A stretch of 64,000 nt of DNA from Marsupella aquatica (lineage: Eukaryota > Plantae > Marchantiophyta). Below the pieces are notes generated by a model. It worked only from the letters and a program-made list of their open reading frames with translations. It did not search any database and was not told the DNA's origin. The DNA lies in assembly GCA_973895155.1 (NCBI GenBank), contig OZ316894.1:9585440-9649439 (forward strand), in the 5' to 3' direction. This document shows, in pieces, positions 7,100 to 64,000 of the stretch. The translations under genes were made by a program, and so were the position numbers. How positions within the stretch are numbered: the first letter of the stretch is position 1; every line of letters starts with the position of its first letter.

Positions 7100-7750
7100 T
7101 TTTGCCTCCTTTATCATTGTTGCCCATGCCATTGTTACCCTTGCCCCTCTAGTTGCTATGCTGATGATATCCTGGCACAAAGGGTTGACCACCACAACAT
7201 CAGCCAAGGTATGTTAGTCATCATGGACCATAAAAGGATTGTCAGGTTCTTGTCCTGGTAATTGTTATGGTGGAGTATTAGGCAAATGGAGCACCTGTCA
7301 CCTCCTGTTGCAACTTGTACCAAATTCCCGGAGAGAACTAAAGCAGTAGCATCTCTCATTAATAATTATGGTCTCACCCCCTGTATGGCACCAAAGAAGA
7401 TGGACCCTTGTGGCATCACAAGGCTTCCGACATGTGCAAGAAGTAAGTAAGCTTACAAGAAGTGGATCATGATGTAAGGTCCCCATACAAAGATGTATGG
7501 GTGTTGAGAACTCATCTAAAGACCTCCTTAGATGAGGAATGGCAGAATTGGCCTGGAGCCACCATTTCCACACTTCCCTCCTGAAGAAAGAATTTGAGCT
7601 TGGACACTAAGATGAGAACAAAGAACTAGGACCTAAAAGAGAGGCAAAAGTCTCTTAAATGGAGAGATCAAAAGGTGAAAATGATCAAAAGAAAGGTGCG
7701 AAGTGTCCACCCACTTACAGGTCATATTTGATTGGGGACTATAAACATTT
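7100..7750 (-). pseudogene. Decayed fragment of the CRE-like non-LTR retrotransposon family (zinc-knuckle/REL region)
   Basis: ORF 7298-7573 (WLQANSAIPHLR...SCTCRKPCDATRVHLLWCHTGGETI) matches the element at 21040-21240 (WLQANPVIPHLR...SCTCGKPCDATGVHLLWYTLGGETI). Boundaries are approximate. Confidence 0.75.
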
Positions 7751-16036: not shown

Positions 16037-16765
16037 ACCAACTGGCTTTGGTCAGTTGAGGATGAGCCTAGAACCGAGAGATCCCAGGTTCAATACTCCC
16101 TCCACATATAAGGGGTGTGGAGGGTATGTGTGTGTGTGGAGGGTATGTGTGTGTGTGGGAGTATTGATTATCTCCTCAGCCCTGGTTACTCACTTTGGGT
16201 TCTGGTTTAATACTCTCTCTCTCCTGGTCTGGGTCCCTGTCGGATCCCTGGGTATTGTCCCCTTGTGGCTGCCCTACATAGAAATGCATGCTCCAAAGCA
16301 GGACGTCTATCCTCTGTTGGATGGGCCTGCTTTCGGTTTTCAAGGCAAAAAGAAACTGAATCTCCAAAGTTTTTTTTTGGCTTTGAAATCAAAAGCTAAC
16401 CCTCCAAGAGAGGATAGGAGTTTAGGATAGAAGATAAACTCCTAACCATGCACTTCTGTAGGGTAGGTCATACCCACACCAGGAGGGAGAGAGGGTTAAA
16501 CCTTGGATGATAACCTATCCAAGAGAGTATAGACGATAGACTCCTAAGCATGCACCTCTCTAGGGTAGTCTGCAAGGGGTCATACCCACAACAGGAGGGA
16601 GAGAGGGTTAAACCAGAGCCATGGACCAGCCAGGGCTGAGGAGAATCCAGGAGTGCGCCTCACCCACGCACCCACCCACACACACTCCACAACCCTTGCT
16701 TGCAGGCGGGGATTGAACCTGGGACCTCTCAGTTCTAGGCTAATCGAGTGAAAATTAGGAGGACA

Positions 16766-17850: not shown

Positions 17851-19687
17851 GCCTCGAGATTGTCTTTCGTGGTGAATTGCGTACTCCACCCCCAGGAAAT
17901 TTAATGGAGGGCTTCAAGTTTTAGTAAGAACCCCCTAATGGGTTCATATGGGAGTATCACATCCCTCCATACCATGATAAACTTTTTTATTTTCTTTAAG
18001 TCAATGACTGCACACCTTAGATTACCACATATTGATGCGTGATTAGGGGCAGGGGGTTTAGCTTTTGGTTCCTTGGCTTTTCTTACCTTGTGCTTTTGTC
18101 CTGGTTCTTTTGGTTTGTGGCTCTTTGTTTTTTCTCCCTTGATTGGGTTTCTTGCCTGAGGGTTTTGTCTCCCGGTTGGGTGGGTGCTCTTTATTTTTTG
18201 GCATATTAGGCAGGGGGGTTCATATGAAAAGAAAAGAAAAAAAGTATTTCCCTCACAACGGGACAAAATTTTCTGTGTCCTGACAGGGTAGTGAACTAGT
18301 GATACTCCTCATGAATACCCCAGTTGACCTGGGTCCAGACTTTAATTAGTTTGAGGTGGCTTTAGTCATTACTGCCCACATGGCAATTTCCGTCCTGTAC
18401 TCCTGTAAGTGTATTGTCTACATGGCAAGGTAAAGTAGGTTTGCCGTCCACACTGAAGAGTTACTTTATAGTGTACTGACACCTTCGTGTGGCTGTTCAC
18501 GATGGTTTGACTATCTACATTATGCCACCCTTCAGAAAAACATAATTGCTTCGCTATCTTATTGTCCATGTCCAAATGACAAACAGGCTTTTCAGTCTAT
18601 ACATTCTGTGCCACGAGTCAGAGAAACATAATGGCGTCCTTATCCTATTGTCGTGTCCAAAACTCCAAATGACAAGGCTTTGGAGAAGGCTGGCTTTTGA
18701 ATCGACACTTTTCTTTACATATATGATATATATGTTAACGTCAATGGTTGGTAGCAATCTTGATTTATTGCCTGGGTCCCACTATTAAATGCAGCCGTAA
18801 TTTATTTATTACGATCCAGTGTATCCCACTCTTGGATATTGGCCTATTGGGGGTCTTTCCAGCTGAAGAAAAACGAGTGATCTCCAAATTTTGTGTGCAA
18901 AGGAAACTTGACTTTTCTGTGTGCAAAAAGGTTTTATAAACTGGCGATGGGGCAAAGGTCGGTGACGTATGAACCATGAGCTAGGACCTTTCTTGCAGCA
19001 CTGCACACACGGCGTCGACTATTAACAAGCAAACTCTGCATTTATGTGCATCCATGCATACAGTAAAAAGCATTCTGAAATGTCTAGACTGCACATATCC
19101 TCATGTCTTGACCTTTTGTGCATCTCCCAATAACGGCTAGCATGGATTAGCTGGTCCCAAAGGACAACAATAAATGAGTTCATGCATTGAATGGCTGGAC
19201 CAATGCAGCAATTAATGAGCTTCTTGTTGGGATACAATCTCCAACTGAATGTCCTCTTCTCCCTCGGGTGATGTTTATGTATAGTATGAAGAGCTACAAT
19301 GTTCCTAACTAGGGTTAGATAAGTAACCCTGGTGACTTAATTATTGTGTCATAACACTTCTCGTTTTCTAGAGTTCTCGTTTCTTAACCCAATCTGGACC
19401 ATTGATGGACGTTTCAATCTCAGATCTGGACCGTTGATAGACCTCAGGGGGTCGATCAAGTAACAAGTTTCATTTTGGGGGTCCATCAAGAAAATACCTC
19501 AGTAAAAACATTTTAAAAAGTCAGGTCCAACCCCACTCTGACTATGGAACTTTATCAGGATTTCAGGAACCAGGTTTTTTTGGTTGCTGAATATGTATCT
19601 GGAAGAGATTATAGAGTGGTTGACTCATTCCTAACTTTGTTGATGGGTGTTCAAGACATGTATATGTAATAAGTTACACACTTCAGT

Positions 19688-22000
19688 TTGCTATTGGGGA
19701 GGTTTTTCTTCGTCTTGTGTCTCGTACACTTTCATCGCAATATCGCTCTGCACTTTCGGATCATCTCTCTCCACATCAGTTTGCAGTGGACGTTCCTGGC
19801 TGTTGTGAGACAATTATTGGGGGTATTCGCGCGTGCTACCTTGGACCTCCACCCTGATTGGGTTTTCCTCCAGGTTGATGTCTCTAACGCTTTCAATACG
19901 GTTTCTCGGGCAGCCATTTTTCGTGCTTTGAGGGCGGCGGATCCAGACATCCAGTCCCTTATCCCCTTTGTCCGTTATTTTTATGGACTTGAGGCCCCGC
20001 TCTTCTATAGTCATCACACCTCTACTGGATTGTATACCACTCTTTCTTCTCCTGAAGGTACACTTCAAGGTGACCCTTTGGGTGGGCCTCTTTTTGCCAT
20101 TGCCTATTTTACAGCTTTACGGGAAGCTACCCCGGCCCACCCCCAGTGTATCTTCCCCTCCCTTTCATATGACACTCACATCATTGATCCCCCTGCCGCA
20201 GTTGCTTCTGCCCTTGCCACTCTTTCTACCCATTTGATGGGTCTCGGTTTACGGGTTCAGCCTATGAAGAGTCGTGCTTGGAGTCCAGTTGGGTTACCCT
20301 CTGATCTTGCGCTAGCTTCCCTGGGTTCTTAAGTCCAGCCGACGGTCTTCGGGTCCTTGGCTCCCCAATCGGTACCGCCTCCTTTTGCTCATCTCTCATC
20401 GTTGACGCTCTACAGGCGGCCTTAGCCCCTACTCCTATGCTCCCTAAGTTAGCAGATTCTTAGGCTGCATTTGGGATGTTGTTGAGGTGCGTCCACCCTC
20501 GTGCGTCTTATTTGACTAGGATGCATCCCCCTATCGAGGATCTTTGTCTCCACCTTCGAGCATTTGATGTCTCCATTCGAGAGACTATGGCCTCTCTTTT
20601 AGGGCCGGGTACATTGCTCTCATCTCAGTGGCTTCATCGACAGCTCAGTCTTCCTATTTCTCAGGGCGTGTTTGGGTTTACTCCCATTGAGCGCCTTGCA
20701 CCTTTGGCCTATTTGGGCGCGTGGGCGGCCGCCTTCTCATTGTTGGCAGATGGTTTCCTTATTGAGGACCGACCTTTTTTATTTTCATCTCTCACGGAGG
20801 TAGAGGAGGGTTCCCTCCCATTTCAGGTTCATTTGCGCGCAGCAAGGTCATCATTACCAGATCCCGTCCGAGCTGCGTTACCTTCATTTCAAGAGTTTTT
20901 ATCCTTGGACCCCGTCCATCTTCAGGCAGACCTTGTTGGGCATATGCACGCTTTCACCCTCTTCAGCATCCTCACTGAGGCACCTGACATGGACCAAGCT
21001 TGGATTCTTTCTTCCGAAGGAAAGGGCGCAGGAGGATGGCTTCAGGCCAATCCAGTTATTCCTCATCTTCGGATGTCTTCAGCAGAGTTCTCGACAGCCA
21101 TGCGTCTTCGTATGGGGCTGCCCCCACCCACTTCTTGTTGGTTTTACCTCCTTCTTGCACTTGTGGGAAGCCTTGTGATGCCACAGGTGTCCATCTTCTT
21201 TGGTACACTTTGGGCGGCGAAACCATTTTTGTTCACGATGATATGAGAGATGCGATTGCTCAGGTTCTCTCTAGCTCTTTGGTCAGCGTGCGGCGGGAGG
21301 TGGTGCTCGAGTTACCTGGTCCTCCATCACAGCGGTTGCAGGTGGATCTTACTATGGTCTGTGAGGGTCAATGTACTTTGGCTGATGTAGTAGTGGAAAA
21401 CCCATTGCGCCAAGACATCATTGGGACAGCGGCAACAACAGCAACGGCAGCGGCATCACGAGCGGCAACAACGAAGGAGGCCAAATATGTTGCCCGAGCT
21501 TCATGTGATAGCTTCCTCCCCCTTTCTCTTAAGATATTTAGGCATCTCCACCATCAATTCAACGGGCTTCTTCAAAAAGTTGCTCGGGATGTTCATGGTC
21601 GGATGGGTCCCACCGGACCCCCACTATTTGTTTTGACCACGCACTTTTGCCAACGCATTTGAGTCACCTTATAGCATGCTCAAGCTCGGGCCATCCATCG
21701 TTGATCTCTGACAATGGGTGCTAGTGTGCCTCCGCAGAGGCTAGCCCCCCTAGAGGACATTCCAGTCCCACTTGCTGATTTAGTTTCGACACTTGATGTG
21801 GACCATTAGCTATTAACCACATTAGCTAGGAATGATAAGGACCTTGGTCCATTTGCGGTCATTTTAGTTCCCCTTTCTTGGTTCTTAGAGGTTTCCTTTT
21901 GCTCACTTCTTTTGCATTTGGTTTTGCCCACTTGGGACCTCTTTTGTTTCTTCTTTTGTACTCTGTTTGGCCCTTTTCTGTAAAAAGTTTGTGTATATTT
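19688..22000 (+). mobile_element. 5'-truncated, inactivated non-LTR retrotransposon (RT plus CCHC plus restriction-like endonuclease; CRE-like)
   Basis: RT motifs AIGEVFLRLVSR, HQFAV..PG..E, DVSNAFNTVSR, GTLQGDPLGGPLF. C-terminal CTCGKPCDATGVHL and DLTM...DVVV...KEAKY...FLPL. Several in-frame stops and frameshifts. Possible TSD ACTTCAGT at 19680-19687 and 22001-22008. Confidence 0.85.
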
Positions 22001-39727: not shown

Positions 39728-40118
39728 ACTGGCAGCTTGGCCCACAGGACCAATATTCTGGCACGCTTCCTGGCGTCCGCTTCTCCTGTGTGCAGCGTGC
39801 TTGCTCACTCTACAGACCCAATAATCTGAAATGCTTCCAGACCTCCTCTGCTCCTGCGTGCATCTTTAGCATGGACTTTGAGCTGCGTGGGGTGTAGCTT
39901 TAGCGTGAGTGGGATGCAGCTGTGAGCTTGTAGTGAGCTGAGCCGCTCGGCGCGATCTCCACAACCCACTCGGATCAGACAAGTCTCCGACAGAATAGGT
40001 CGAGTGCGCGGGGGACCCGCAAACTTTGCTTTCAGCCCGCAGTTCTCGCCGTTGGCGCAGCTTGGAGTCAACCAATCTGTCTTGTCTTCTTCTTCCTGAG
40101 ACAAGCTCCGCAAGAGCC

Positions 40119-41507
40119 ATGGCGGAAGAACAGCGAAACGGAGGGGCGAGTCAAGGGCGTCACAACCATGGAGGAGTCCCACCAGTAAGCCTTTACGGGA
40201 AACGTAAGAAAGCACAAGGTATGAAGGTTACAATTTTGCATTCTCTTCCATTGAATGCTGTAACCACACTGCAGCTCAGAAAATCTACTGTTCTCGCCGT
40301 CTTGATCTGTCTATACGTCCTCCTCGTGCATGCTGCTCCCGCTCCCACGGGCGCTACAAGCACAAATGCCATAGTCTCAATTGACTCCCGACTTACATAC
40401 CTTCTACCCGCGGGATTCGTTGGCAACCTCACCCTGAATTTCATCGACACAGTGACCAGCGATGGCACCATCGCGGGATCGTTCTCAGCCGCGAAGAAGG
40501 CACCGTTCATCTCCTACGATCCCGAGTTTCTGCAGATAATCGGCGAAACTCCAAACTCGCCACAGCTCATCGCGCATAGAGACGAGCTCTTCGCCGACGA
40601 GGCAGGCGTTTGGGTCCCGGAAAAGAACCAGGTCTGGTTCACGAGTTTCACGGTGAATGACGCCAGCAATCTCTCGATCCTCGACCTCGGCACGTCGAAG
40701 ATCTTCAGGCCGAACACCAGCATTCCAGTCGTCACTCCAAATGGCGGATACTACTTCGAGGGCAAGGTTTACTTCACCGGCCAAGGCACCACCCCGGTGG
40801 AGCCCTGCATTTACGCCATCGACATCCACACCTATGAGACGACGATTGTCATCAATTCCTACTTCGGTCTCCGCTTCGGGGGTCCCAACGACGTGACCTG
40901 GGCCAGGAGGAAGAGTGGAGATGGTAAGAAGAGCTTCATGTTCTTCACTGATGAACCGGAATCGTATATCTACGCTGGTGGTCTGCCCCCGGTGCTCCCC
41001 AATGCCGTCTGGAGGTATGATCCGCAGGACGAGAGCATTGTCCCTGTCATAAGCCGAGCAGACATCCTCGCCCCGAACGGTGTGGCTGTGAATGCGGATA
41101 GCTCGAAGCTGTATGTGACCGATACGCCATTTGCTAACGTGTATTTGCCCGCCGACACGCCGAGCTCGGGATCCACGGCCATCTTCTCCTTCGACCTCGA
41201 CGACGATGGCTTCCCGGTGAACAAGCGAATGCTCGGGATATCGAGAAGTGGCATTCCAGATGGCATCAAGGTCGACGACGCAGGAAGGATATGGACTGGG
41301 GAGGGCGAAGGGATTGTGGTGCGGAATTCGAGAGGCAAGGTCCTCGGTGTCTTCAACTCCGAGTTCTTTCTGGAGAATTATCAGAATGAACCTGCCATAG
41401 CGAATTTCGCACTTGTCGATGACACGCTCGTTGTGCTGGCTATGCAGAGGGTCTGGACATTGAAGCTGGCCCAGAGGGTCGTTTCTCCTGATAGGTATCG
41501 AATGTGA
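40119..41507 (+). CDS. SMP-30/gluconolactonase/LRE-family beta-propeller hydrolase, probably secreted
   Basis: Motifs EAGVWVP, PNGG, GGPNDV, FFTD, PNGVAVNADSSKLYVTDT, IPDGIKVDDAGRIW and a hydrophobic N-terminal segment. Possible in-frame 90-bp intron 40184-40273; alternative ATG at 40221. Confidence 0.88.
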   Translation: MAEEQRNGGASQGRHNHGGVPPVSLYGKRKKAQGMKVTILHSLPLNAVTTLQLRKSTVLAVLICLYVLLVHAAPAPTGATSTNAIVSIDSRLTYLLPAGFVGNLTLNFIDTVTSDGTIAGSFSAAKKAPFISYDPEFLQIIGETPNSPQLIAHRDELFADEAGVWVPEKNQVWFTSFTVNDASNLSILDLGTSKIFRPNTSIPVVTPNGGYYFEGKVYFTGQGTTPVEPCIYAIDIHTYETTIVINSYFGLRFGGPNDVTWARRKSGDGKKSFMFFTDEPESYIYAGGLPPVLPNAVWRYDPQDESIVPVISRADILAPNGVAVNADSSKLYVTDTPFANVYLPADTPSSGSTAIFSFDLDDDGFPVNKRMLGISRSGIPDGIKVDDAGRIWTGEGEGIVVRNSRGKVLGVFNSEFFLENYQNEPAIANFALVDDTLVVLAMQRVWTLKLAQRVVSPDRYRM

Positions 41508-41544: not shown

Positions 41545-41920
41545 TTTGGAAGATGCATCAATGAATCGTGTTCGGGAGATTTATGTCCAACTTTTGTGGC
41601 AGCAGTCATGATGGACATTTGACCACTCATCCCTCGGTTCCCAACAGATACTTCAATCTGGTGGGTTTGCAAGATGAAATGCATCAATGAATTGTGTTCA
41701 GGAGATTAATGTCCAACTTTTATGGCAGCAGTCATGATGGACAGTTGACCTCCCAATCCCTCATTTCCAATCAGATACTTCAAATTGGTGTGTTTGCAAG
41801 TTAAGATGCATCAATGAATCGTGTTCGGAAGATTAATGTCCAACTTTTATGGCAGCAGCCGTTGATCTCCCAATCCCTCGTTTCCAATCAGATACTTCAA
41901 TTTGGTTGGTTTGCAAGTTC
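41545..41920. repeat. Three-copy ~130-bp tandem repeat downstream of the lactonase
   Basis: ATGCATCAATGAAT.GTGTTC...ATGTCCAACTTTT.TGGCAGCAG...CAGATACTTCAA...TTTGCAAG x3. Confidence 0.85.
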
Positions 41921-42719
41921 TGGGGCTCACAGAGGGAGGGACACAGGGTGCATTCTTCTGGATTTATTGGCACAGGAGGGACTGTCAAAAAGAGGCAGCA
42001 CCTCCTACTGTGGCTCAACTGATAAGACACATCAAAATTTGAGCCTTGACTAGTTGCCAAGAAAGGAAATCATGTGCCAAATCACCGCTTGTAAGGTGAA
42101 TAATGTCTACCAACAAGCGGCATCCATGCAATTTTCGGTATCGGATTGTTGCCATGTAAGGCTATCATTTGCCAAATCAACACTTGAAAGGCCAATCAAA
42201 TGGCGTCCATGCAAACTCCTGTATCTATGTGTTGCCTGTCAAGGAACTCGATCAGACACCAAGTGGCCCCTCGTCTGGTGCATGATGTCTATTATCAGGT
42301 TGGCGTCAGTCCTCTGTATCCACAGTGCCCACGTACAGATTGAGTTTCATCGAAGGGATGATTGGAATTTTCAGCTATACCGCATACTGGAATGATGAAC
42401 TCTTCTGTCTAAAGTGAACGTCCAGACATCCCTCTTTACATAAACAATGTACAGTGAGATCTGGGTGCGAGGAGCAGAAAATTTGAAACCGCTGATCTCG
42501 TCCATACAGGATACCAAATGGTAGAATGCTCGGATTCCACCGGATGTATGATGACCACAGGCTGGCGTACAGTATCCACGGATCCCACGGCAGTAAGAGC
42601 CGTGGACTACCCTGAATGCCCGGTTTAATCTGACGGGCACCTTGACGCCTTGTCGGGCACGTCAAATCGTCAAATGACGGCCCGAAAACACGCAATTTGA
42701 CGTATATTCCTGAAGATTC

Positions 42720-43320
42720 TCCCGAACGAACCCCGACTTCCCCGGACCTTTCGCGAACACCTCCCGAGCACCCCGGACCTGAACCCGAACTCCCCCTGAC
42801 CCGAACCCGGACTCCCGGGCCCTTCCCGGACCCTCCCCGGACCCTCCCGGGCCTTTCCCGAAACCTCGCCGGACCCTCCCCCGAACACTCCCCGGACTCT
42901 CGGGCCTTTCCCGGACCCTCCCCGGACCCCCACCCGAACCCTCCCCGGACCCCCACCCGAACCCTGCCCGGACCCTTCCGGGGCCGGCCGGGGTAAAGGT
43001 GGCCCGGGGGACGGGATTCGGGGAACCGGGGACGGGGGGCATTCGGGGAAGAGGATTCGGGGAACCGGGGAAGGGGGGGCGGGAAAGGGGGGCCGGGATT
43101 CGGGGATTTGGGGAACGGGGTTCGGGGAACGGGGTTTGGGGAACGAGGTAGGGGGTTCGGGGAACGGGGTTTGGGGAACGAGGTAGGGGGTTCGGGGAAG
43201 GGGGTTCGGGTAGGGGGTTCGGGGATGCGGGGAACGGGGTTCGGGGAACGGGGTGCGGGGTTCGGGGAACGGGGTGCGGGGTTCGGGGACGGGGCTCGGG
43301 AATTGGTGGCCGGGGAAGAG
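42720..43320. repeat. Left subterminal GC-rich repeat field
   Basis: C-rich CCCG(A/G)ACC units (42720-42975) switch to G-rich GGGGTTCGGGGAAC units (42980-43320). Confidence 0.85.
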
Positions 43321-43529
43321 TTAGAGGCGGGATTAGGGTTAGGGGCGCGAGATTAGGGTTAAGGGAGGCGCAATTAGGGTTAGGATCAAAGATTAAGAGT
43401 TTTAAGAGAGGATAAGAAGTAGATGATTTAGTATAAGTAGGAATAACTAATTCATTTCACTAATCCAAAGTCTCATTGTGTTTCTCTCTCTTGTGGTTTA
43501 GCATTAGGGAGAGATCGGAGGGATACATT

Positions 43530-43885
43530 GGAACTCTTGTACGCGCATGCTTTGAGCTCGGCTCGGTCTGCGATAATTCGTACGAGAAGTTCCTTATATC
43601 GCCTTAACAACTTTGCATCATTGTTTTGTTTGAAAGTGAACTACTTGCGAGTAAAGAGATACCCATGTGCATATGCTTAGAGCTTTGGCTCGGTCTATGA
43701 CATTTCATATGGGTATCACGATTTCTCATACATATGTTCACTTCAAAGATAAACTATTGTGAAGTTATAGATATTACATAACATAGGTTGAAGTAGGGAT
43801 GTTGACAAATATAAGAATTTGGGAAACTTTCCTGCGCATGCTTTGAGCTTAGGCCCAGTCTGCGATAATTCAGGAAAGTAACCCA
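43530..43885 (+). promoter_or_regulatory. Three tandem conserved stem-loops upstream of the transposase ATG
   Basis: Core CGCATGCTTTGAGC-loop-GCTCGGTCTGCGATA inside different closing stems at 43530-43593, 43658-43717 and 43820-43885, with compensatory substitutions. Confidence 0.75.
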
Positions 43886-43960
43886 TTGTACTATATTTGT
43901 TATATTCACAAAATCAAAAGAATCAACCCTTTTATTTTTTTACCATTGAGAGTCGTAACA

Positions 43961-46863
43961 ATGTCCGATGAAGAGGATTCGCATGAAACTGGATATCATT
44001 CCACTACTCCCAGGCCTGGTCCAACTCGTGTGCAAGAACACCCTTCAAAACAATCTCCAGTGTGGAGATATTTTGAACGATGTGATGCGCCTTCAACATG
44101 TCATGATGTCAATCGTATCTATCGAAGATGCAAGTATTGTTTAACATACGTTACTCATCATGCAACACGAGCAAAGGCGCATTTGATGGGAAACATCCAA
44201 AAAGGGGATGCGCCCCCTTGCATGCAACTCTATGGTGTCGTCGATTTGGATGCCATCAACATTATGTACAATGTGATAAAGGTTCCACCGACCTTAAACT
44301 ACAAACGACGAGATGGAAGTCATATCTTGCGGGATGTGAGAGGTCGTAGGCCAAGCGTTGGAAGTTCATATTCGCAAGCATCCACACGAGGGTCAAACTA
44401 TGTTGACATGGATGATACACATGTAAGGGAAGGAGATAGGCCAGTAAATCTTCCTAACCCAATTATGGATGCCTATCAAATTCCAAATAGAACAAATTTG
44501 GATAAGCTTTGGGCGAAAGCTTTCTACACCAATGGTATTCCATTCAATGTTTCAAATAATCCTTTTTTTCGAGAAGCAGTCATAGAGACTTCAAAAGGGA
44601 TTGTCAATGGTTATTCTCTACCTACGATGCGAAGTTTGCGATTGAAATTATTGGAAGACAGTAAGGAGGATCTCACAAAGGACATGACGCAAACTTTAAA
44701 GGAGGCAAAACCTTATGGGTATTCTCTTTCTTCAGATGGATGGGAAAACGTCCGAAGAGAACCTTTGATGAATGTCATGTTGTTGACTTCTAAAGGTGAC
44801 TTCTTCTTGGATAGTTGGAATGCTGCGCAAGCTGACAAGAAAGATGGGAAATATCTTGGCGACATGTGGTTGAAATACATTGAGGATATTGGTGCAGATC
44901 ATATTATTCAAATTGTAACTGATGGAGCACCCGCAAATCGCGTAGCAGGTTGTGAGGTAGTCATGAAAAAGTATCCTCATGTCACTTGGAGCTGGTGTGC
45001 TGCCCACGTGTTTAATTTGCTGCTAGAGGATATGTGTGGTCACAAGCGTGTAGTGGTAGATGATGTTGGACAGAATCCATTCCAAAAGATTTTTAAACGG
45101 TTGAGGTGGATAGTAAAAGCAGTTTCATCATCGCAAAAGCTTTCTGCAATATTTGCAAGAAAATCTCCTGACAAAAAACTGTTGAATCCAAATGCAACTA
45201 GATTTGCGACCAATTTCCTAATGGCACAAAGAGCGTTGGAGCTAAGAGGAGCTTTACAACAGATGGTCATTGATGATAATTGGCAGTCTTATCGTGATAG
45301 ACTTCCATTGCGACCAAAATCAGCTGGACACATGACGAGGGGAAAGGCAGACGAACTTAAAATGTGGATACAGCAAGATACATTTTGGGTTGAAGTGAAG
45401 GATACAGTTAAATTCTTTACTCTGTTGGTCAAGATGTTGCGAGAATTTGATGGTGATTCTCCGCAATCAGGTTGGTTGTATTGGAGTTTGAAAAGAGGGA
45501 TTGATGTTTTGAAAGCAAGCATGGAGGATTGTCCATTGGTAACAGAGGTATTGAAACCGAAGATACTAAAAGTGTATTTGGATCGAAAAAAATCTCTTAC
45601 CACTGATTTCATGCTAGCGGCAGCATATCTCAATCCCCAAATGTTTTTTGATGAGGACATAGATGTCGCTGGAGATCCAGAACTCTACAGGGTTTCAGTG
45701 AATACATTGCTAGATATTCAGAACAACAGGTGAAGGAGGGGATCAACCATGATCGCGACGTCAGAGAACTTATTTCTGCCATCCACAGTCAAGCCATTGA
45801 CGCCCAAAAAAAAAATCCCAACACATCAATAGCGATGGGAGCCGCCCAATCAAGTATAGGTAATGTCAGTCCAGCAGAGTGGTGGCATGCGTATGGTGCA
45901 GATTATAAACATTTGAGAATCCTGGCGCGAAGAATCTTACACCAAAAAGTGTGCGCATCAGCTTGCGAGCGAAACTGGAGTTCGTATGGATTTATACATT
46001 CCAAAAGTCGCAATCGATTGACAAATGATCGAGCAAAAGATTTGGTGTTTGTATTTACAAACATGAGGGTAGAGAAAGGGCTCACAAATGTTCGAAACCC
46101 GCATACGTTTATATATGAACGTTATGACCAAAGAAGAAGAACAAATGATGGACCTAGACCTATCTCCATGGAGTTGTGCAGCAATGAAGAGTACGATGCA
46201 ACACGTGCGGCTCTTGGTGAAGAAGATGTCGAAGATTATGATACAATTGATGATGCTGATGAATTGCTACACGGATTTTCACTGGATAAGGATAGTGAGT
46301 TCTTGACTCGTATTCCACCAGATACAGACATCACTGCTGCAGAGGAATGGGAGAATGAAATGGATTTGGAGATGTATCCTACAATTGATGAATCGCAAAT
46401 CCAAGACGAGGAAGATGCATCACTGGACAGAAACTTTGTGATGCCTTCCCAACCAAGGTCACCTTGGTCGAACTTTGCGAATGATGTTGACACAAGCAGA
46501 CCATATTTCAACGAGCAACGCACAGGCACAGCAGGGCATCCGACGAATGGAAGGACATCAACCTTTTTTCATGGATACAATCATGAAGGTCAAACTTCAA
46601 ACGACCCACATGCAAACTGGCAACACCATGCAGGTCCACCCTTGAATGCGTATGCAGGGCCAAGTGTCATGAATCCATATACGTCGAACAGGCCTATTGG
46701 CCTTGGTGGGTTTCGAGGAATATCATCATTTCAAGAAACATCGCACAATGTTCAGTCACACAATCGTGATCCACTCAGTTGGGGCGACAAACAAGACGAG
46801 TGGAATGCGCTTTTGTGCAAAAATCTTAACAACAATGCACGAAATTTCTCTTCACAGCCTTGA
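43961..46863 (+). CDS. hAT transposase (BED zinc finger, DUF659-type RNase H core, hAT dimerisation domain), one frameshift
   Basis: BED finger (SPVWRYF..CKYC..KAHL), catalytic D (SDGW), D (VTDGA), CAAH, TRFAT, then WW..YG and CERNWS (E). An apparent 1-bp deletion near 45683-45690 splits it into ORFs 43886-45733 and 45730-46863. Confidence 0.92.
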
Positions 46864-47104
46864 AGCATCTTTTCATTAGGATAATATCAAGTGTTGCTAC
46901 TCTTATATTGTCGTATCTGACATAGACAAAATTATAAACAATTATATTTTTTGTAACATGATTGTATTGTCTTGCAGTGTGTTTATTATTGTACAATGAT
47001 TGAATAATTTATTTGTATTTGCATTTGAGAATGCCATAGAGACACACCAACGCAACATGTTTTCCAAATCTCCAACACTGACTATTTCAAAGTACCTTGT
47101 TGTT

Positions 47105-48430
47105 GGCCATAGCAGCCGTAGTCCATACTAGCCCCCTCCATTAATTGGTTAGTTCATTTCACTATGCGAAGATTTAGTCCAGCAATAGAGCACCGTCATA
47201 TTCAATAATAATGAGGTCGAGAGGACCTCATTATTGGACCTGAGAATGTCATTGCTTGAATAAACCTTCTCGTAATAAAATAAACTTAGTTGAACTTGAA
47301 GTTGTAATGAGGGCCCATTTTTGGGGTGGGTGAATGTCGTTGACCGTAGCAGCTGCACTACTTGAAGTTGGGCAGAGTTTATATGACTATGAGAGAAGTT
47401 GTGAAATGAACACATCGCCTACATAATCAGTAACCTTCTCATAATCATATAAACCCCGTTCAACTTGAAGTTGTAATGAGGGCCCATTGGTGGCCAAGGA
47501 GAGCAATGTCATGATGATGATCAGACACGGTCACGGGGATTCCGCAAGATCGGTCACCAAATTGATATGCAGACGCAAAATACAATCACCAATTTCAAGT
47601 CAAAGTTCACCCGTTTATATCCTCTCCTGTCCGAATTCCAATTCGAGCTTGGACACCCTCTCGTCAGCAGGTCTCCACCCTTTCAGTTGCTCCTCACGCG
47701 AACCTCTGGATTCCTCAAACACTATGAATGATGCATTGAAATAAAATAGGTTCGAGGATTCTAGAGACTGCTATCTTGGTTTGCGTGAAGAGCAACTGCA
47801 ATGGTGGAGACCAGCTGACGAGAGGATGTCCAAGCTCGAATTGGAATTCAGAAAGGAGAGGATATAAACATGCAATTGTGCGAATTAATGTCATAGGCCG
47901 TAGTAGCCGTACTCCAGTAATTGGTCAGTTCATTTCATTATCAGAAGATTTATTCAAGCAACGGAGCACGAACATATTCAATAATAACAAAGTCAGGAGG
48001 ACCTGAAATATTGACCTGAGAGTGCCATTGCTTGAATAAACCTTCTCATAATGAAAAAAACTCTGTTCAACTTCAAGTTCTAATCAGGGCCCATTTTTGG
48101 GGTAGGCAAATGTAGAGGCGTTGGCCTCGGTTTGCATGCGCATGAATGTCATTGGTCGTAGCAGCTACGCTACTTGAAGTTGAACAGAGTTTATTTGAGT
48201 ACGAGAGAAGTTGTGAAACCAACGGATCGATGACATACTCAGTAATTTTTTGCTCGAAGGACCTGAAAATTTGACCTGAGAGTGCATTTGCTTTCAGAAC
48301 TTCTCTCGTACTCAAATAAACTCCGTTCAACTTCAAGTTGTAATGAGGGCCCATTTTTGCGGTGGGCAAAGGAGTAGGCGTTGGCCTCGGTTCGCATGTG
48401 CATGAATGTCATTGGCCGTAGCAGCAATAG
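47105..48430. ncRNA. Cluster of five pre-miRNA-like foldbacks (putative small-RNA precursor array)
   Basis: Arm pairs 47151-47186/47251-47286, 47360-47400/47432-47471, 47613-47704/47778-47869, 47927-47961/48028-48062 and 48172-48222/48288-48338. Four units share a scaffold ending ...AACTT(G/C)AAGTT.TAAT.AGGGCCCATT. Expression is not demonstrated. Confidence 0.65.
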
Positions 48431-48930
48431 CGGAAAAAATTATGAAAGACAGGAAAAGTGAGTGGACTTAGGTATACATCCTTCTACAAAATCATTCTCA
48501 ACTTGGGCGGCTAAAACCATTGCGATGTTGACTTTGTTGAACTCATTGTGCTACACGATCTCCTTTTGGAAATGATTTCAGAGAAGGATCAGTACCTGAG
48601 TCCACTGTGCTACCGTCTCTCATCACGTCTATTTTCCTCATACTTGTCCAAAAATATGATTGTGAGCCCGACAATATGCTTCCAAAACCTATGGCTGATT
48701 GGAGGATGGAATATTCTTACGAAAATACACATTCTCCAAAAGGCGACGCCATGCCCCCAATGAAAAATATATGTACTCATCGAGATATGCAATGTAATGT
48801 CACTCCAAAATCTCTTTACCAATTACAAGTTGAAAATAATTGTCAAAGAGGATATGCCGCTTCTATTTTAACAAAATGTCTCTAATAGTAACTACATGAA
48901 AATAACATCAAAATGTAGAGACTATTGGTT

Positions 48931-50928
48931 TTAGTTCCTTTTGTTGTTATTGTCAACAGCTTCTGTTTTCACCTCTGCCTGTTGTTGACGTCGTCGATGG
49001 CGCTGAATGGATCGTTGCAAATTTTGCTCATCTATTGATGGCTGGTTGGCTGCCGCATATTGTTTCCACTCATCGAGTCGACCACTGAATAACAACCTGT
49101 CAAATTCCCCATCTGACAAATTATATTCATTGATTGTGAAATGTTCAATGGGAGTTTCATCTATTTGCATCGCCGGTATAGTATCTTCAGTCATATCTTC
49201 AGTGTTTTGTTGAGTCTCCATTGATGGCATTTGCTTCAACAATCCTCGTTGCTCATACTCGCGTTCATGAAATGGTGTGCGACACCAACATTTTCGGCTT
49301 TTCTTCAACCATTTAGACAAGCAAGCATGATGCCATATATGACCGCAGGTTCCCAACATGGAAACAGATTCAGGGCCCCAAGGATATAGGCACCAAGTAC
49401 ACTTGTCATCCTTTTCACGAACAAATGCTGCCATAGTTTCATCATTTTTCCACTTATCAAAAAACCTATCAATACCTTCCGCGTCAACCTCCACATCTGG
49501 AAAAAGGTTGCTGTGCCCTGTAGGATCTATGATTTGCATGTTAACAAAATTTGGCGGCGATAATTCACCTTGCCCTTTGTTTGACCTCATCCCCAAAGCA
49601 CCATTGTTAAATTCTTGCACCTCTTCGTGAAGATTTGATATGATGATTGCTTGCATTGCAAGTTCACTTTTAAGATCATTAATGATCTTGTCCTTCTCCT
49701 CAAGTCGTGCCAGTTCATTGCATTGACGCTCTTTTTCAGCAAGTTGTTTTGTCAGCTTATTGATTTCTTCCATCTTGTCAAACAATTGACACTTGTACAA
49801 CATCACTTCCGAATTGGTCGTCGGCTCGTTCTGCTTCTTCTCAAGTGATCTCATCTTTATATCAGCTTGTTGCAATTGTGACTTGAACTTTTCGATGCTG
49901 CCACATTCACATAGCTCCACTACATACTTCGTGCGGAGATTTGTCTCAATCACCTCTGCAACATCTGCCCCCAAGCTCTTGCATATGTTGTGCAGGTTGA
50001 ACTTATCCTTGTTAGCATCAGTAACATTGTTGTTCTTTGCATGTGGAGTTCTACTCCCAACACCTACAAGGATTGGTTTTTTGGTGTGCGTTGACTCCAC
50101 ATTGGTTGGTGGTGCTGCACGGTCAGGCATGGAGACTCGAGGAAGTACAGCCGCTTTCCCCTTCTCATGCGCATATCCCTCCCCAGTGTCATCTAGCTTT
50201 CTTTTGGATCCCTTGTTGGAAGTCTCCATTGAAGGGTCCTTTGCAATAGTTGTATTCCTATTCGTTGCAATCGCAACCACTGATGGATGCACCTGATGAG
50301 TCAGCTTGCCAGCACTGTTTTCCCAACGGTAATCCACCTTCCACTTGAGAATGAATTCAGCAATCAGACATCGGATAAAAGGAGGGTAAACGGAACTCAT
50401 TTTCGTTTGGGCTTTGTGTGGAGCAAACTCTCGATATCGTTGCTGCCAATGTGATTTAACACCTGCATGTGTTACTTTGGACATGGTGAATTTTTCTTGC
50501 GCCCATGATCTTGTTGCCCAAAGATCCGGATCGTGAAAAACTTGTTGTGCTAATGGCCAAAAGTCTTTCTTTGGCATCAACATCTCCAATTCCTTTGCAT
50601 TCATGGCCCATTCGTCATGGGGAGGATTTACATTGGGCGTTAATATACTCCATTCATCCTTCATACCCTCATCTTCCCATCTTCTTGTGTTTGGCGTCGG
50701 TGTTCCATCAACCTTGGGTTTAGCCTCATAGTGAATGCCAATGGTTGTAAGATTATCCAACACATTATTACGAAGAGCTTCATCGTCACAATAGGATCCT
50801 TGACCATCTTGCATGGTAAGATGTTGTGTTGTGAACTCTTTGTCTTCATCATCAGAAGACAATTCCCATCGTCCCATGTTTGCGATGTGTACAAAAGGTC
50901 TGCGATATTTGACAATGTACAAACACAT
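48931..50928 (-). CDS. Transposon cargo: coiled-coil plus RING-H2 protein (putative E3 ubiquitin ligase)
   Basis: Uninterrupted 665-aa ORF (second ATG at 50877), heptad-rich middle region, and CTWC-x14-CGHIWHHAC-x10-CWC ligand pattern. Confidence 0.82.
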   Translation of the reverse strand: MCLYIVKYRRPFVHIANMGRWELSSDDEDKEFTTQHLTMQDGQGSYCDDEALRNNVLDNLTTIGIHYEAKPKVDGTPTPNTRRWEDEGMKDEWSILTPNVNPPHDEWAMNAKELEMLMPKKDFWPLAQQVFHDPDLWATRSWAQEKFTMSKVTHAGVKSHWQQRYREFAPHKAQTKMSSVYPPFIRCLIAEFILKWKVDYRWENSAGKLTHQVHPSVVAIATNRNTTIAKDPSMETSNKGSKRKLDDTGEGYAHEKGKAAVLPRVSMPDRAAPPTNVESTHTKKPILVGVGSRTPHAKNNNVTDANKDKFNLHNICKSLGADVAEVIETNLRTKYVVELCECGSIEKFKSQLQQADIKMRSLEKKQNEPTTNSEVMLYKCQLFDKMEEINKLTKQLAEKERQCNELARLEEKDKIINDLKSELAMQAIIISNLHEEVQEFNNGALGMRSNKGQGELSPPNFVNMQIIDPTGHSNLFPDVEVDAEGIDRFFDKWKNDETMAAFVREKDDKCTWCLYPWGPESVSMLGTCGHIWHHACLSKWLKKSRKCWCRTPFHEREYEQRGLLKQMPSMETQQNTEDMTEDTIPAMQIDETPIEHFTINEYNLSDGEFDRLLFSGRLDEWKQYAAANQPSIDEQNLQRSIQRHRRRQQQAEVKTEAVDNNNKRN

Positions 50929-51064
50929 TTAGCACAATTTTGGGCATTCACGACAAAGTTTGATAGAATATTATCAACAAAATGCAGAACATTGTAATTG
51001 ACATACAATGAATAAACATATAATCGTTAAGGTGACCTTTACAAAATTGTGTAAACCCTAATCT

Positions 51065-52720
51065 CTAATCTCTAAGATATGGACTGTTGTGCAAATGCAA
51101 TGTGCAATCTGGAAACGTTCGAACTATCTTCAAACTCCAAAAAGCACAATCCATTCTTTTCTTGGCATCCGTGGCCATCATTTCACGGATTATGATATCC
51201 AATTTGGGGCCATGCACTTGTGCACTCCAACCCCTCCCCAAAAACCGTGAACCCTTAGACATTCCATCCCAATTCTCTGTCAACAATGTCTCAAAAATAT
51301 TCCCCAAAGCATATATATCGGTACTTTCACTAAACTCGACAGGGGTAGGTTGAACAAGCTCCGGAGCCAACTGTGGAAATTGTTTTTGGTATGTTGCTGC
51401 TTTTTCTGTTGCTGTGGGCCACATCCGATTAGCTGGTAATTTGCACTGTGATTTATGCTTAGACAAGCCAAAATCACATAAACCAACATACACCTTAATA
51501 GCCACATCGTGCTCGTGATCGAAATGAAGAAGGATGTTTCCAAAGTGAAGATCACAATGAAATCGATCATGCTCATGCAAGTATTGCAGTGTCTCCAGCA
51601 AAGCCAAGGCGATTCCCAACCGGTTCTCCAACAAGAGTTTCTTCTCCGAAATAAACTTGAAATCAAGGTCCGTCGTGATCTGTGCCTTCCCCTTGCTCTT
51701 TGACGATATGCCGCACTTATCAATAAAGCTACCCAAGTCACCTCCATTATAGTGATCGTAAATAAGTTTTGGCGGATCCTCAATAGTCAACGCAAGAGCT
51801 CCAACGATTCCCTTATGATTCAGTCCTCCCATAAGCACTTCTTGTAATGCGTCAGTTCGTCTCTTATGCTTGTCTCCATCCTTGAACCGCTTTGCGACTA
51901 AGGTCACGTTGACGGGAATGAGAGGACAATGTAATATACGACAAGTGTATACCTCTCCTTGGATTCCTTTCCCAATGCGACGTGTGTTGTGCACCTGCTC
52001 AGGTTTAAGAAAATGGATACTCCTAACCTCTGGAACTACACGCGATGGACGTGTTCCTTTTCGAGCACTTTTGATGCTGACATCCCCAAAGTGCACAATC
52101 TCGTTAGCATATTTGACATTGCTATCAGATTTTGCCATTGCCAACTCCTTACTCCACTTCACTAGCAATTCTCTCTTGTGTGTGTACATCCCGGGGTTTC
52201 CAAGCAATGTAGTGTCACCCTCTTCCACTTTGGCTGCCAAATTATCCCAAACATGCTTCTCCAAGTTGAGTGCCAAATTTTCCAGAAATCCTCCCGGTTT
52301 CTCAGTTTCATCTTCAAATGACTTCATTTGCTCTCGTGTGAAATTGTCTTCCTTTTGTACACTTTCCCGCATACAACGGGTTATCTCACCAAGAAAGTTT
52401 TTGTATCCTTTCTCTCCGTGTCTTGTGAACTCCCTCTCGAACCCGTCCACCCCATACTGTTTCGGTTGAGTGTAGCGATAAAGTATCTCTTTCCATATCG
52501 ACACTACCACATTGTGTCGAACTTGTTTTGCCTCTTCGTTTGCCCCCTTCCGTTTTCGTTTCCCGGCCACTTTGCTAGAATTCCTAGCATGTTCGAGAGT
52601 GTTTCGAGCGTTCTTCAATGCATCCAGAGCAACAAGATTCGGCTCATATCCCTCATTCACATGTTTTGTGATCATCTCCAACACTTGCCTATACTCTAAA
52701 CTAAAATTTTCGATGACCAT
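51065..52720 (-). CDS. Transposon cargo: protein kinase (TKL-like, non-RD) with N-terminal helical extension
   Basis: Uninterrupted 551-aa ORF with GKGIQG loop, VAK lysine, alphaC Glu, HCDLHFGNIL, DFG, APE and DIYALG. Basic KRKRK patch near the N-terminus. Confidence 0.9.
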   Translation of the reverse strand: MVIENFSLEYRQVLEMITKHVNEGYEPNLVALDALKNARNTLEHARNSSKVAGKRKRKGANEEAKQVRHNVVVSIWKEILYRYTQPKQYGVDGFEREFTRHGEKGYKNFLGEITRCMRESVQKEDNFTREQMKSFEDETEKPGGFLENLALNLEKHVWDNLAAKVEEGDTTLLGNPGMYTHKRELLVKWSKELAMAKSDSNVKYANEIVHFGDVSIKSARKGTRPSRVVPEVRSIHFLKPEQVHNTRRIGKGIQGEVYTCRILHCPLIPVNVTLVAKRFKDGDKHKRRTDALQEVLMGGLNHKGIVGALALTIEDPPKLIYDHYNGGDLGSFIDKCGISSKSKGKAQITTDLDFKFISEKKLLLENRLGIALALLETLQYLHEHDRFHCDLHFGNILLHFDHEHDVAIKVYVGLCDFGLSKHKSQCKLPANRMWPTATEKAATYQKQFPQLAPELVQPTPVEFSESTDIYALGNIFETLLTENWDGMSKGSRFLGRGWSAQVHGPKLDIIIREMMATDAKKRMDCAFWSLKIVRTFPDCTLHLHNSPYLRD

Positions 52721-52933
52721 GTTTTCCCTTCACAAAAGGAATATGTGAGGGAGGAACAAGATCTTACCGGGATTTAAATAAAATCCTTCCAATAAGGATT
52801 CAACGACCAACCTGAAAATTACAAGTCGTATTGTTATTATCTTTTCCCGGTTTATTTCTCCCATGCATTATGTATTTTTATTGCACACATGATTTTAATT
52901 ACCTTTCTATATACAACAATAAAAGAGAAAGAC

Positions 52934-53283
52934 AACACTTGTGAAATATCGCAGACCGAGTGGACGCTCAAAGCATGCGCACAAAAGTGTTCTTTTCTTT
53001 CAAAGTTGTTATATTCCTGCTTCGACATATGTGATTTGGTGTCTATAACTTAACACTCATTTGTATTTCAAGTAAAAACATTCTCGGCGAATCGTGGTAT
53101 CCATGCAAAGTATCGCAGACCGAGCCGAAACTCTAAGCATGCGTACATGGATTCCTCTATCTCCGCAAATGTTTTACTTAATGAACAAAGGAGACTAAAT
53201 TGTTAAGGTGATATTAAGAAATTCTTGTACGGAGTATCGCAAACCGAACCGAGGCTCAAAGCGTGCGCGTACAAGTGTTTCTT
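52934..53283 (-). promoter_or_regulatory. Three tandem conserved stem-loops upstream of the kinase ATG
   Basis: Reverse-complement copies of the same core at 52934-52991, 53096-53155 and 53216-53283, each with its own closing stem. Confidence 0.75.
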
Positions 53284-53411
53284 TATATCCCTCCATTTGG
53301 CTCTAAGGTTAAGGTTTAAAACACAAAAAAAACTTAAAAAATCACAAAACAAAACACAAACAAATAAAAACAAACCAAAAATCAAAAATAAAAACCAAAA
53401 CCAAACACTTA

Positions 53412-54115
53412 CCTCCTCCTCCTCCTCTTCTCTTCCTCCTCCTCCTCCTCTCCTCCTCCTCCTCCTCTCCTCTCCTCTCCTCCTCCTCTTCCTCCTCTCC
53501 TCCTCTCCTCCTTTCTGCAAAACCAAAAATGAGGAGGGAGAGGAGGGATCTCCTCCTTTTATCCTCTCCCGAGCCCCCGACCCTTTCCCGGCCGGCCCCA
53601 TCCTCCAACCCTAAATCGCGAAACCCTAATTCTTCGAGCCTCAATCCCGAACCCCGAACTTCCAAACCCCGAACCGGACCCCGAACCCCGAACCGGACCC
53701 CGAACCCCGATCCCCACCCGGACCCACCCCGGCCTCCCGGACCCGAACCCCACCCGGACCCCACCCCGAACCCCCACCGAGCGCCTCCGCCCCGGGCCCG
53801 GACCCCACCCGAACCCCCCGTACCTCCCGAACCCGAACCCCTCGGACCCGGACCCGAACCCCACCCGGAACCCCACCCGAACCCCCCGCACCTCCTCCTC
53901 CCGGACCCGAGCCGCACCCGGACCCCACCCCGAACCCCCACCGAGCGGACCCGAACCCCACCCGGACCCCACCCCGAGCCCCCACCGAGCGCCTCCGCCC
54001 CGGACCCGGACCCGATTAGTCACCCGGACCCCCACCCGAACCTCCTCCCGAACCTCCTCCCGAACCCGAACCCCGAACCGGACGTTTCCTTTCCCGGACT
54101 GCTTCCGAACCCGGG
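53412..54115. repeat. Right subterminal repeats: (CCT)n tract and C-rich CCCG(A/G)ACCCC units
   Basis: CCT/CT microsatellite at 53412-53510, then dense CCCGAACCCC / CCCGGACCCC repeats at 53570-54115. Confidence 0.85.
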
Positions 54116-54826
54116 TGCCGGGTTGTCAATTTGCCGCTCTCAAACGCCCAGTTTGACGGGCAAGGTCAAACCGGGCCTGAATGCGTGATCTGCACCTCAT
54201 AAAGGAGAAGGATCATATAAAACATCCATTGTTTGTAAATAGAAGCCTCTCAAGAAATAACAGGCTTGTGTGGGCGAAAAGGAGAGCAAGTTATAGCAGA
54301 GAGACAAGGGATAGATGTATGCTGTGGAAATCCTATTGATTCCAATGAGCATCGGAGAAATTGTTCTCTGTATGCACGGAGTAGAAGTTTTGAGCCACAG
54401 CACTGAGGAACACCAAACTGTGAGGCACATGCTGTCGAATCTGAATAAACGCATTTAACAAAGTGCAGAATATACTGTAGCTTTGTAACGGCAAAGGAAG
54501 GGTTCAGAAGGAAAGTCATACAAATGTGAGTACTAAAGCCTTAAATTTTGGCAAAAGGAGAGCAATGGAGAGCTTTCAATGACGTGTCAAACAGTGTGCG
54601 ATCTACGCTTTCTGCAAATATATTCAATTGTTAAAAACTCCACTCATGCACTTTAGTGTTGGAAGCTTGGTTACACTATCAGGTGAAATACCTCACATGC
54701 ATCAGTCAGCTAGTGAGTCTACAGTAGTTTTAATGATTGTAGTACCGTAGAATAGTTGGAGACCATATCATGGAATTTCTTCTAATTTATGGATACAAGT
54801 TTGCTGCGAAAGTGGAGCACAAGATT

Positions 54827-54995
54827 TTGGCAGAGTGAGATGGCGTACGAAGGAACTTTGTTGAGTCGTGCTGGGCAAACTCTTGGCAGAGTGAGATGGC
54901 GTACAAAGGAACTTTGTTGAGTCGTGCTTGGCAAACTCTTGGCAGATTGAGATGGCTTACATAGGAACTTTGTTGAGTCGTCCTGGGCAAACTCC
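54827..54995. repeat. Three-copy ~56-bp tandem repeat
   Basis: TTGGCAGA.TGAGATGGC.TAC..AGGAACTTTGTTGAGTCGT.CT.GGCAAACTC x3. Confidence 0.85.
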
Positions 54996-57937: not shown

Positions 57938-58286
57938 GCAAATTCGCTTTAGTCGAAGAAGTGGATGCTATTTTGACGAAGGCAGCAAACTTAAAAACAT
58001 GTCCTGTATACACTTTTCCCAGTTACCCGTTTTCCTGCATCCTATATACATCAAGACAAATTCGCTTTAGTCGAAGAAGTGGTGATTTTGAAGAAGGCAG
58101 CAAACTTGAAACATGTCCTGTATACACTTTCTCAGTGACCCGTTTTCCTGCATCCTATATACATCAAGACAAATTCGCTTTAGTCGAAGAAGTGGTGCAA
58201 TTTTGAAGAAGGCAGCAAACTTGAAACATGTCCTGTGTACACTATTCCCAGTGACCCTTTTTCCTGCATCCTATATTCATCAAGAC
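57938..58286. repeat. Three-copy ~120-bp tandem repeat upstream of RCCR
   Basis: CAAATTCGCTTTAGTCGAAGAAGTGG...GAAGGCAGCAAACTT.AAACATGTCCTGT...CCTGCATCCTATAT.CATCAAGAC x3. Confidence 0.88.
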
Positions 58287-62785: not shown

Positions 62786-63639
62786 CTCTGTTACCTCAAC
62801 GATCCGCCTTTTTGCTTCACAAACTCCCGAGCGAAGTTAGGACTCCCCCTAACAAAATTGTTGTCCGTCCGTCCGCAGGCAGAAATCGCATGGGACAAGG
62901 GGAAAAACCGGGCAAGGAGAAAAACCCTAATGTTTTCAGTTGCCTATTAAACCATAATAACGCGAGTCCAGATTGCCCCAGAGACGGTCAGTCAAGTGAC
63001 CTGCAGGAGCCATCATTGCCGAAATTTTAGCACGCAAAATTGAAGATCACTGGATGCTCAAAAAGCACGTGCACAGACAGTGTTCATAAAGCCAATATTT
63101 CCGTGCTGAGCCTTGGAAAAATGCCTGACCCAAACGTAGTGGCGAGCGAAAACGAGACAGCGCGTTAGTAGAGCTCAGATTTCTTTGCCCGGGAGCTTGA
63201 GACAATGCTTCGACCTAATTGCAAACGACTTAAATGAACGAGACAAGACTGTTCATAGTTTAGAGCAAAAGATTGCTGCACAGAGCTTGGACAAATTGCT
63301 TCAACCTAACCCACTGTGGTTGCGAACGAATTCACGAATCGAGCATGCTTCGACCTAATTGCGACCGGCTTGAGTGAGCGAGACAGAGCATATATTTCTT
63401 CAAACCAAAAATTGCTGCGCAAAGCTCTGAAGAAGCGCTTCAATCTCACCTCCTGTGATTGCGAACGAATTGGCGAATTGGCGAATTGGCGAATCGAACG
63501 AGCGCTCTGCTCGCAAAGAAGGAGCGCGAGAACGAGAGAGAGCACGACGAGAAACGCAACACTACTGCACCAAAACAACAATAGCAACGAGAGAAAACGC
63601 TACTGCACTATCAAATGCGTTCGCTCCACTTCTTCGCCT

Positions 63640-63915
63640 CCTCCTCGCAGGACCTCTCTCGGACGGTTTACGTGTATACGTGCTCAGTTCGCCCCCTCCT
63701 TCCCAGATAGTACACTAGTTACAAACGAAACGTCTCCTCCTCGCACGACCTCTCTGGGACGCTTTACGTGAATACGTGCTCAGTTCGTCCCCTCCTGCCC
63801 AGATAGTACATTAGTCACAAAAGAATCGTGTCCTTGTCGAAGGACCTCTCTCGGACGGTTTACGTGTATACGTGCTCAGTTCGTCCCCTCCTGCCCAGAT
63901 AGTACACTAGTTACA
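63640..63915. repeat. Three-copy ~95-bp tandem repeat upstream of RPT2
   Basis: GACCTCTCT.GGACG.TTTACGTG.ATACGTGCTCAGTTCG.CCCCTCCT.CCCAGATAGTACA.TAGT.ACAA x3. Confidence 0.88.
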
Positions 63916-64000
63916 ATAGAAGGCACGAAAGTTGTGTCATGCCTTTCATTATTTTTCTTTGGAATTTTCTCAGATGGTTTTAAACTAGGGTCATATTCCA

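Follow-up and report, generated by a model that had tools for sequence, protein, structure and literature searches.

A cargo-bearing hAT transposon holds a hairpin array between convergent genes

The window, that is, the whole 64-kb stretch of DNA that was analysed, contains an 11.6-kb hAT transposon (42619–54175), recognized by its target-site duplication, its terminal inverted repeats and its transposase. The 8-bp target-site duplication flanks the element at 42611–42618 and 54176–54183, and this 8-mer occurs only these two times on the plus strand of the window. At its ends, the element displays 8-bp perfect terminal inverted repeats together with GC-rich subterminal repeat arrays, and it also contains a pair of inverted blocks (43517–43872 and 52942–53294) that are 72% identical. 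The transposase is encoded on the plus strand in two overlapping frames (43961–46863), in which both the DUF659 (E 1.8e-30) and the Dimer_Tnp_hAT (E 5.9e-11) domains were detected above the curated Pfam cut-offs. The transposase frame is broken by a frameshift near 45655–45733, whose cause may be mutation, misassembly or the presence of a small intron; as it stands in the sequence, this copy has no intact frame of the kind that an autonomous element would have. About 1.1 kb to the left of the transposon lies a long uninterrupted ORF (39999–41507) with an SMP-30/gluconolactonase (SGL) domain.

Apart from the transposase, the element carries two cargo ORFs on the minus strand. The first (48931–50928) encodes 665 aa, the C-terminal part of which gives a weak match to RING-H2 (E 6.9e-6, slightly below the curated cut-off), and the second (51065–52729) encodes 554 aa with a protein kinase domain (E 1.9e-16). 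The gap between the convergent transposase and RING/kinase ORFs is filled by an array of hairpins; read on the minus strand, the RING ORF comes upstream of this array. Among 7068 candidates, two relatives of the RING ORF were identified, one being a Calypogeia fissa protein of 50% identity, which itself has no Pfam match, and the other showing 51% identity. The Calypogeia relative suggests that the RING cargo belongs to a TE-borne family that liverworts share. When the RING protein was used to look for related elements in metagenome and viral contigs, 34 and 78 pattern matches were obtained, none of which was confirmed. An exact look-up of five proteins of the window found none of the five.

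The hairpins flanking H3 carry compensatory changes

The hairpin zone extends over ~1.5 kb and comprises six hairpins of three sequence kinds, namely the foldback H3, which is the subject of this study, and five others. Four of these are mutually paralogous and are assigned to the minus strand: H1 (47151–47286, within array unit 1, ~47117–47329), H2 (47357–47474, unit 2, ~47338–47498), H4 (47927–48062, unit 4, ~47892–48105) and H5 (48172–48338, unit 5, ~48150–48365). A sixth, weaker hairpin, H6 (48432–48640), is placed between the array and the RING ORF and lies outside this four-unit family, scoring 9.6 bits against the four-unit covariance model, and its folding is significant on both strands (z −4.5 on the minus and −6.2 on the plus strand).

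Covariation was assessed in a minus-strand alignment of H1, H2, H4 and H5, with a structure derived from the same four related sequences. In this alignment, changes on both sides were found in 7 of the 30 predicted pairs, and 94.9% of the 117 cells were paired, which was matched by none of the 500 shuffles; slid controls gave 0–2 pairs changed on both sides. Since the four flanking hairpins carry compensatory changes, the array looks as if it is maintained as a structure. These changes concern the sister hairpins and not H3 itself, and arm-to-arm gene conversion is an alternative cause of them. The hairpins might act at the level of DNA or transcription, as cruciforms or as terminators or barriers between the convergent transposase and RING/kinase transcripts, with their pairing kept by gene conversion, and not serve as small-RNA precursors. 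Such conversion would yield compensatory changes as well, and the array sits exactly between two convergent ORFs. However, hairpins with loops of 42–73 nt and stems that are imperfect are more in keeping with RNA precursors than with cruciforms, and the excess of G:U pairs on the minus strand, though marginal, is not expected from conversion. We regard a role of this kind as unlikely.

The strand bias was examined through the folding energies and the wobble-type mismatches. H1 to H5 all fold better on the minus strand, whereas H6 folds better on the plus strand. Wobble-type mismatches favoured the minus over the plus strand by 22:7 in the wider gapped windows and by 15 to 4 in the ungapped cores (p = 0.019). 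Once the columns common to the paralogous units were merged, the ratio became 7:2, and the addition of H3, which alone gives 3:1 (p = 0.63), brought it to 10:3 (p = 0.09). Because the merged G:U excess is non-significant and H6 favours the plus strand, the minus-strand transcript is a lean and not a result.

Beside each of the four units, an unpaired stretch of ~24 nt (47300–47329, 47470–47498, 48080–48105 and 48340–48365) is among their most conserved parts and could possibly serve as a processing or promoter signal. An 11-bp near-palindrome accompanies this stretch and is found in both orientations among the units.

Geometry, folding and setting of the H3 foldback

The original prediction described a foldback with arms of ~92 bp and ~90% reverse complementarity, and its coordinates proved exact. 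The left arm (47613–47704; 92 nt, 53% GC) and the right arm (47778–47869; 92 nt, 48% GC) are complementary at 84 of 92 positions (91%) and are separated by 73 nt, making H3 the top local inverted repeat of the window (blastn E 5e-55). The additional pairing that had been proposed for the loop is also present. In the inner part (47704–47777), a 17-bp stem is formed between 47704–47720 and 47750–47766, with 14 of 17 pairs being Watson–Crick, beyond a one-sided 12-nt bulge at ~47767–47778, and ends in an AT-rich terminal loop. Folding of the 301-nt H3 region yielded −174.5 kcal/mol (z = −22.5), and none of 100 dinucleotide shuffles was equally stable. On the minus strand, 87 of the 92 stem positions are paired, including an unbroken run of 39 bp, compared with 85 of 92 on the plus strand.

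Plant miRNA precursors are stable foldbacks of less than ~300 nt with a well-paired duplex region. With an overall length of 257 nt, 103–106 bp and an MFEI of 1.43–1.50, H3 has the size and pairing of such a precursor. No known miRNA family was recognized in Rfam, where the best match, MIR2599, reached 33.4 bits against a gathering score of 120 and is a generic hairpin match. Seven matches to snoRNA and other Rfam families up to E 10 all fell below their gathering scores, and no tRNA or tmRNA genes were found.

H3 had also been described as more GC-rich than the flanking units, and this was borne out, as its arms (53% and 48%) exceed both these units (38–43%) and the ORFs of the element (42–44%). 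That H3 is unrelated to the four units held for the most part. A profile of the four units, scanned over the window with nhmmer, gave no match to H3 up to E 50, and the four-unit covariance model assigned 14 bits to H3 as against 140–239 bits to the members of the family. Nevertheless, H3 and the helix base of H2 have identical sequence in the outermost 8 bp of H3, and when H3 was aligned loosely and colinearly with units 1 and 4, the scores were equalled in 8 and 11 of 1000 shuffles, respectively (two of eight comparisons). In a post hoc comparison with the stem bases of the units, the left end of H3 fell in the top 202 of 17,806 background windows (top 1.1%) and the right end in the top 1397 (top 7.8%).

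H3 is located within a 374-bp block (47513–47886) that consists of a 100-nt spacer, H3 and a 17-nt tail. An 8-bp direct repeat (47505–47512 and 47887–47894) stands at the two borders of this foreign block, and its 8-mer doubles as the start motif of the units in the array. What lies here may be an insertion that made a target duplication, or else a unit in which the interior has been exchanged. The 100-nt spacer aligns weakly to the reverse complement of H6 (2 of 200 shuffles; 1 of 40 tests).

Alternatively, H3 may be a neutral passenger, either an inverted duplication of recent date or a small insertion resembling a MITE that landed in the array, with no function of its own and any small RNAs being a by-product. 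The eight differences between the arms, four transitions and four transversions, fit a recent origin, and the direct repeat bounding the block would fit an insertion. MITEs, of the Stowaway, Tourist, hAT and Mutator types, have long inverted arms and a target duplication; H3 shares with them a size of ~260 bp and the long inverted arms but differs in having GC-rich arms, a single copy in the window (none other was found by blastn in the 64 kb) and no clear target duplication where the arms end. Regarding the refuting case, in which the arm would be a high-copy MITE with its own target-site duplication, no duplication of 8–11 bp, as in the hAT and Mutator types, was observed at the arm ends, where the abutting direct repeat is at most 2 bp; what was found is TA/TATA 3–7 bp inside the ends. 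Tc1/mariner-type elements prefer to insert at TA, and an insertion of this type would account for the TA and TATA seen a little way in from the end of either arm. However, the palindrome itself forces such symmetry, and the reading would need 3–5 further chance pairs outside. Moreover, the 374-bp block lacks inverted ends, and the hairpin lies within a 1.5-kb zone that already holds five others. Two other local inverted repeats that are unrelated to the array (5589–5767, 69% identity; 16061–16745, 72% identity) show that such structures arise elsewhere in the window, and the target searches of the window and the protein collections described below were negative, both in keeping with a passenger. 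In Arabidopsis halleri, about one in two new miRNA genes is TE-derived, especially from MITEs, according to the excerpted text of 10.1101/2024.07.25.605110. On balance, we consider a functionless H3 rather unlikely.

Coding potential and protein searches

A coding-like character had been proposed for H3, and the evidence for it proved weak. When applied to 105 held-out 90-nt segments, a codon model trained on eight ORFs of the window put the true frame at the top in 65 of them, with true-frame scores averaging 3.0 (sd 3.8). The purine-rich, open frame A (47745–47864, plus strand) scored 2.9 and 4.2 for the two arms, values typical of true frames. However, a frame with two stops scored as high as frame A or higher. 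In the opposite frame B, five of the eight arm differences fall at third positions, four of them silent, and upstream of the arm, too, the frame runs on for a good distance without a stop (76 codons from 47501), yet its codon score is negative. The evidence for a coding-derived H3 is inconsistent and weak.

Protein searches were similarly sparing in matches. In Pfam, none of the 10 H3 frames matched, and the 63 frames of the array gave no match at the curated level and a single sub-threshold one, which lies outside H3. Word searches of 5.8 billion proteins returned no match for frame A and 52 candidates for frame B, none of them at E 10 or better. The sole match to frame A in a HMMER search of 1.84 billion proteins was a repetitive bindin, in which a stretch of 34% identity recurs in 12 repeats, and it was dismissed as spurious. 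Three H3 frames gave nothing significant against the PDB, one H5 frame gave no match there, and neither of two Atlas queries returned a usable match. On this evidence, frame A is unlikely to encode a conserved protein domain, and the same applies with less force to frame B. The large protein searches covered these two frames, and the other four were compared with Pfam and in one PDB search; the results bear on conserved domains and not on UTRs, introns, fast-evolving linkers or lineage-specific TEs. Separately, a nearby proteasome gene matched PDB chain 8amz_I, from a plant structure, at E 6e-80, better than human chains. Together with the Calypogeia relative of the RING ORF, this match points to a plant host, likely a liverwort.

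Searches for a donor or target of H3

At the DNA level, blastn of the H3 region against the window yielded only chance matches of 12–24 nt, and neither blastn nor tblastx revealed a target or donor there. When all arm 21-mers of the five hairpins were compared on both strands with the rest of the window, the lowest penalty was 4.0 and 13 of the 21-mers had a best penalty of 4.5 or less; we read these values as probable background. An exact DNA pattern gave zero matches in metagenome contigs, and a second pattern gave none either. A 17-mer was encountered at seven viral loci, none of which extends beyond 19 nt, and a 20-mer at two prokaryotic loci, close to the chance expectation in 596 Gb, extends to 43 and 38 gapped bases; both were set aside. 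A 20-nt match at 7588–7607, in a retroelement-like remnant, extends to ~37 gapped bases (blastn E 0.25) and was attributed to chance; it was equalled in 4 and 1 of 200 local shuffles but had been picked from 128 kb. Two decayed fragments, at 7084–7603 and 19673–21662, are related to each other, with 68% identity across 536 bp, and resemble remnants of non-LTR retrotransposons.

Within the element itself, the best window match of the left arm falls in the RING ORF (49760–49850; 2 of 2000 shuffles for the ORF and 3 of 60 window-wide). This match would accord with a self- or TE-directed brake resembling Mu killer or Aha-miR52, in which H3 derives from a relative of the element's genes and limits its own or a competing family. 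However, the match is gapped, far too loose for small-RNA targeting and one of 40 comparisons, and the right arm, at 91% identity, does not share it (1081 of 2000 shuffles). The hhalign probability was 0.4, and no array frame among 89 segments matches the profile of the RING, kinase or transposase. The RING ORF was accordingly rejected as the source of the left arm, and we hold a brake of this kind to be quite improbable.

Taken together, the original proposal of an inverted duplication of a captured fragment, able to feed small-RNA production, is supported as to the foreign sequence and the geometry of a Dicer-like substrate, while its source in a host gene or a TE, its transcription and dicing and its target are putative, all of the donor searches above having been negative.

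H3 as a candidate small-RNA precursor and its relation to known systems

In view of these features, we favour, with roughly even confidence, the reading that H3 is a young, long small-RNA precursor inserted into a transposon-borne hairpin cluster and would work like rice miR820. H3 would be an inverted duplication of ~105 bases foreign to their neighbours, set among four hairpins within the hAT element, and would represent the youngest and longest member of the cluster. The array would be read as one RNA, probably a minus-strand transcript, with the RING ORF upstream of it. Dicer-like enzymes would then cut the H3 stem into several 21–24-nt siRNAs, and not into one precise miRNA, and these would silence the source locus in trans, outside the window, to the presumed benefit of the element.

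In rice, miR820 resides within CACTA elements and has a foldback similar to the target, OsDRM2, as described in the excerpted text of PMC3459959. Like miR820, H3 is a foldback carried by a DNA transposon at some distance from the element's termini, which would spread with the element, and its long arms would keep similarity to the donor locus (PMC3459959, same excerpt). Here, in contrast to what that excerpt describes, a hAT element of what is probably a liverwort serves as the carrier, six hairpins of three kinds are present instead of one, and the searches for a donor or target were negative. No homology to a silencing gene was seen in Pfam, the PDB or the protein collections, and H3 is at most a candidate member of the miR820 kind. 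We think it rather improbable that the target is a host silencing gene, as it is for miR820; a target in some other host gene, or in a different TE family, is no less probable.

H3 also resembles the young inverted-duplication miRNA/siRNA loci of the Allen model, in having a near-perfect stem (84 of 92) from which several siRNAs are expected at first, but differs from them in lying inside a mobile element and a pre-existing hairpin array, with no donor found in our searches (compared with the excerpted text of 10.1101/2024.07.25.605110). With maize Mu killer (PMC3440606) and the hAT-derived Aha-miR52 (10.1101/2024.07.25.605110), it shares a TE-associated inverted duplication that gives a hairpin RNA. 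As these reports describe them, both are hairpins of a TE's own sequence that silence that TE, whereas H3 has no convincing match to the transposase, cargo or ends of its element; an origin of the arms in the transposase or ends, as in Mu killer, was found neither by blastn or tblastx nor by shuffles or profiles. As in Pack-MULEs, Helitrons and Sireviruses, a foreign fragment is carried inside a TE and might give siRNAs against its donor gene, but the captured fragments of those elements are not described as hairpins in the excerpted text (10.1101/777037), whereas H3 is a self-folding inverted duplication.

Small RNAs that are encoded by TEs and direct the host's own silencing against it are exemplified by miR820 (PMC3459959) and by the Athila siRNAs against UBP1b (PMC8616336), and polycistronic miRNA loci are rare in Marchantia, with one locus (PMC9291395), according to excerpts of these reports. 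Among the literature matches listed, which were judged by title and the start of the abstract and came mostly from outside subscription journals, none described a hAT-borne multi-hairpin cluster in a bryophyte.

A more ambitious reading sees in the array a small-RNA arsenal, modular and polycistronic, that is borne by a hAT family of liverworts. In it, a tandemly amplified hairpin scaffold with H3 as a swapped-in guide would be aimed at several host genome-defence genes, beside the RING and kinase cargo. This reading appears unlikely to us; if true, miR820 would have a counterpart in another superfamily and another plant lineage, one that has several targets and can be reprogrammed. More generally, a transposon that combines a structurally conserved hairpin cluster with a fresh long insert would show modular small-RNA counter-defence, and H3 would offer a young precursor whose target could be read directly from the host transcriptome. 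What makes the locus of interest is mainly where it sits, in a cluster of covarying hairpins within a hAT element that bears cargo. Should H3 be neutral, the single finding would be ordinary, and the sister hairpins would still be worth testing.

Repeats of another type are also present in the window, where three-copy tandem repeats with units of 56–127 bp were observed at 41553–41919, 54820–54994, 57939–58286 and 63635–63921.
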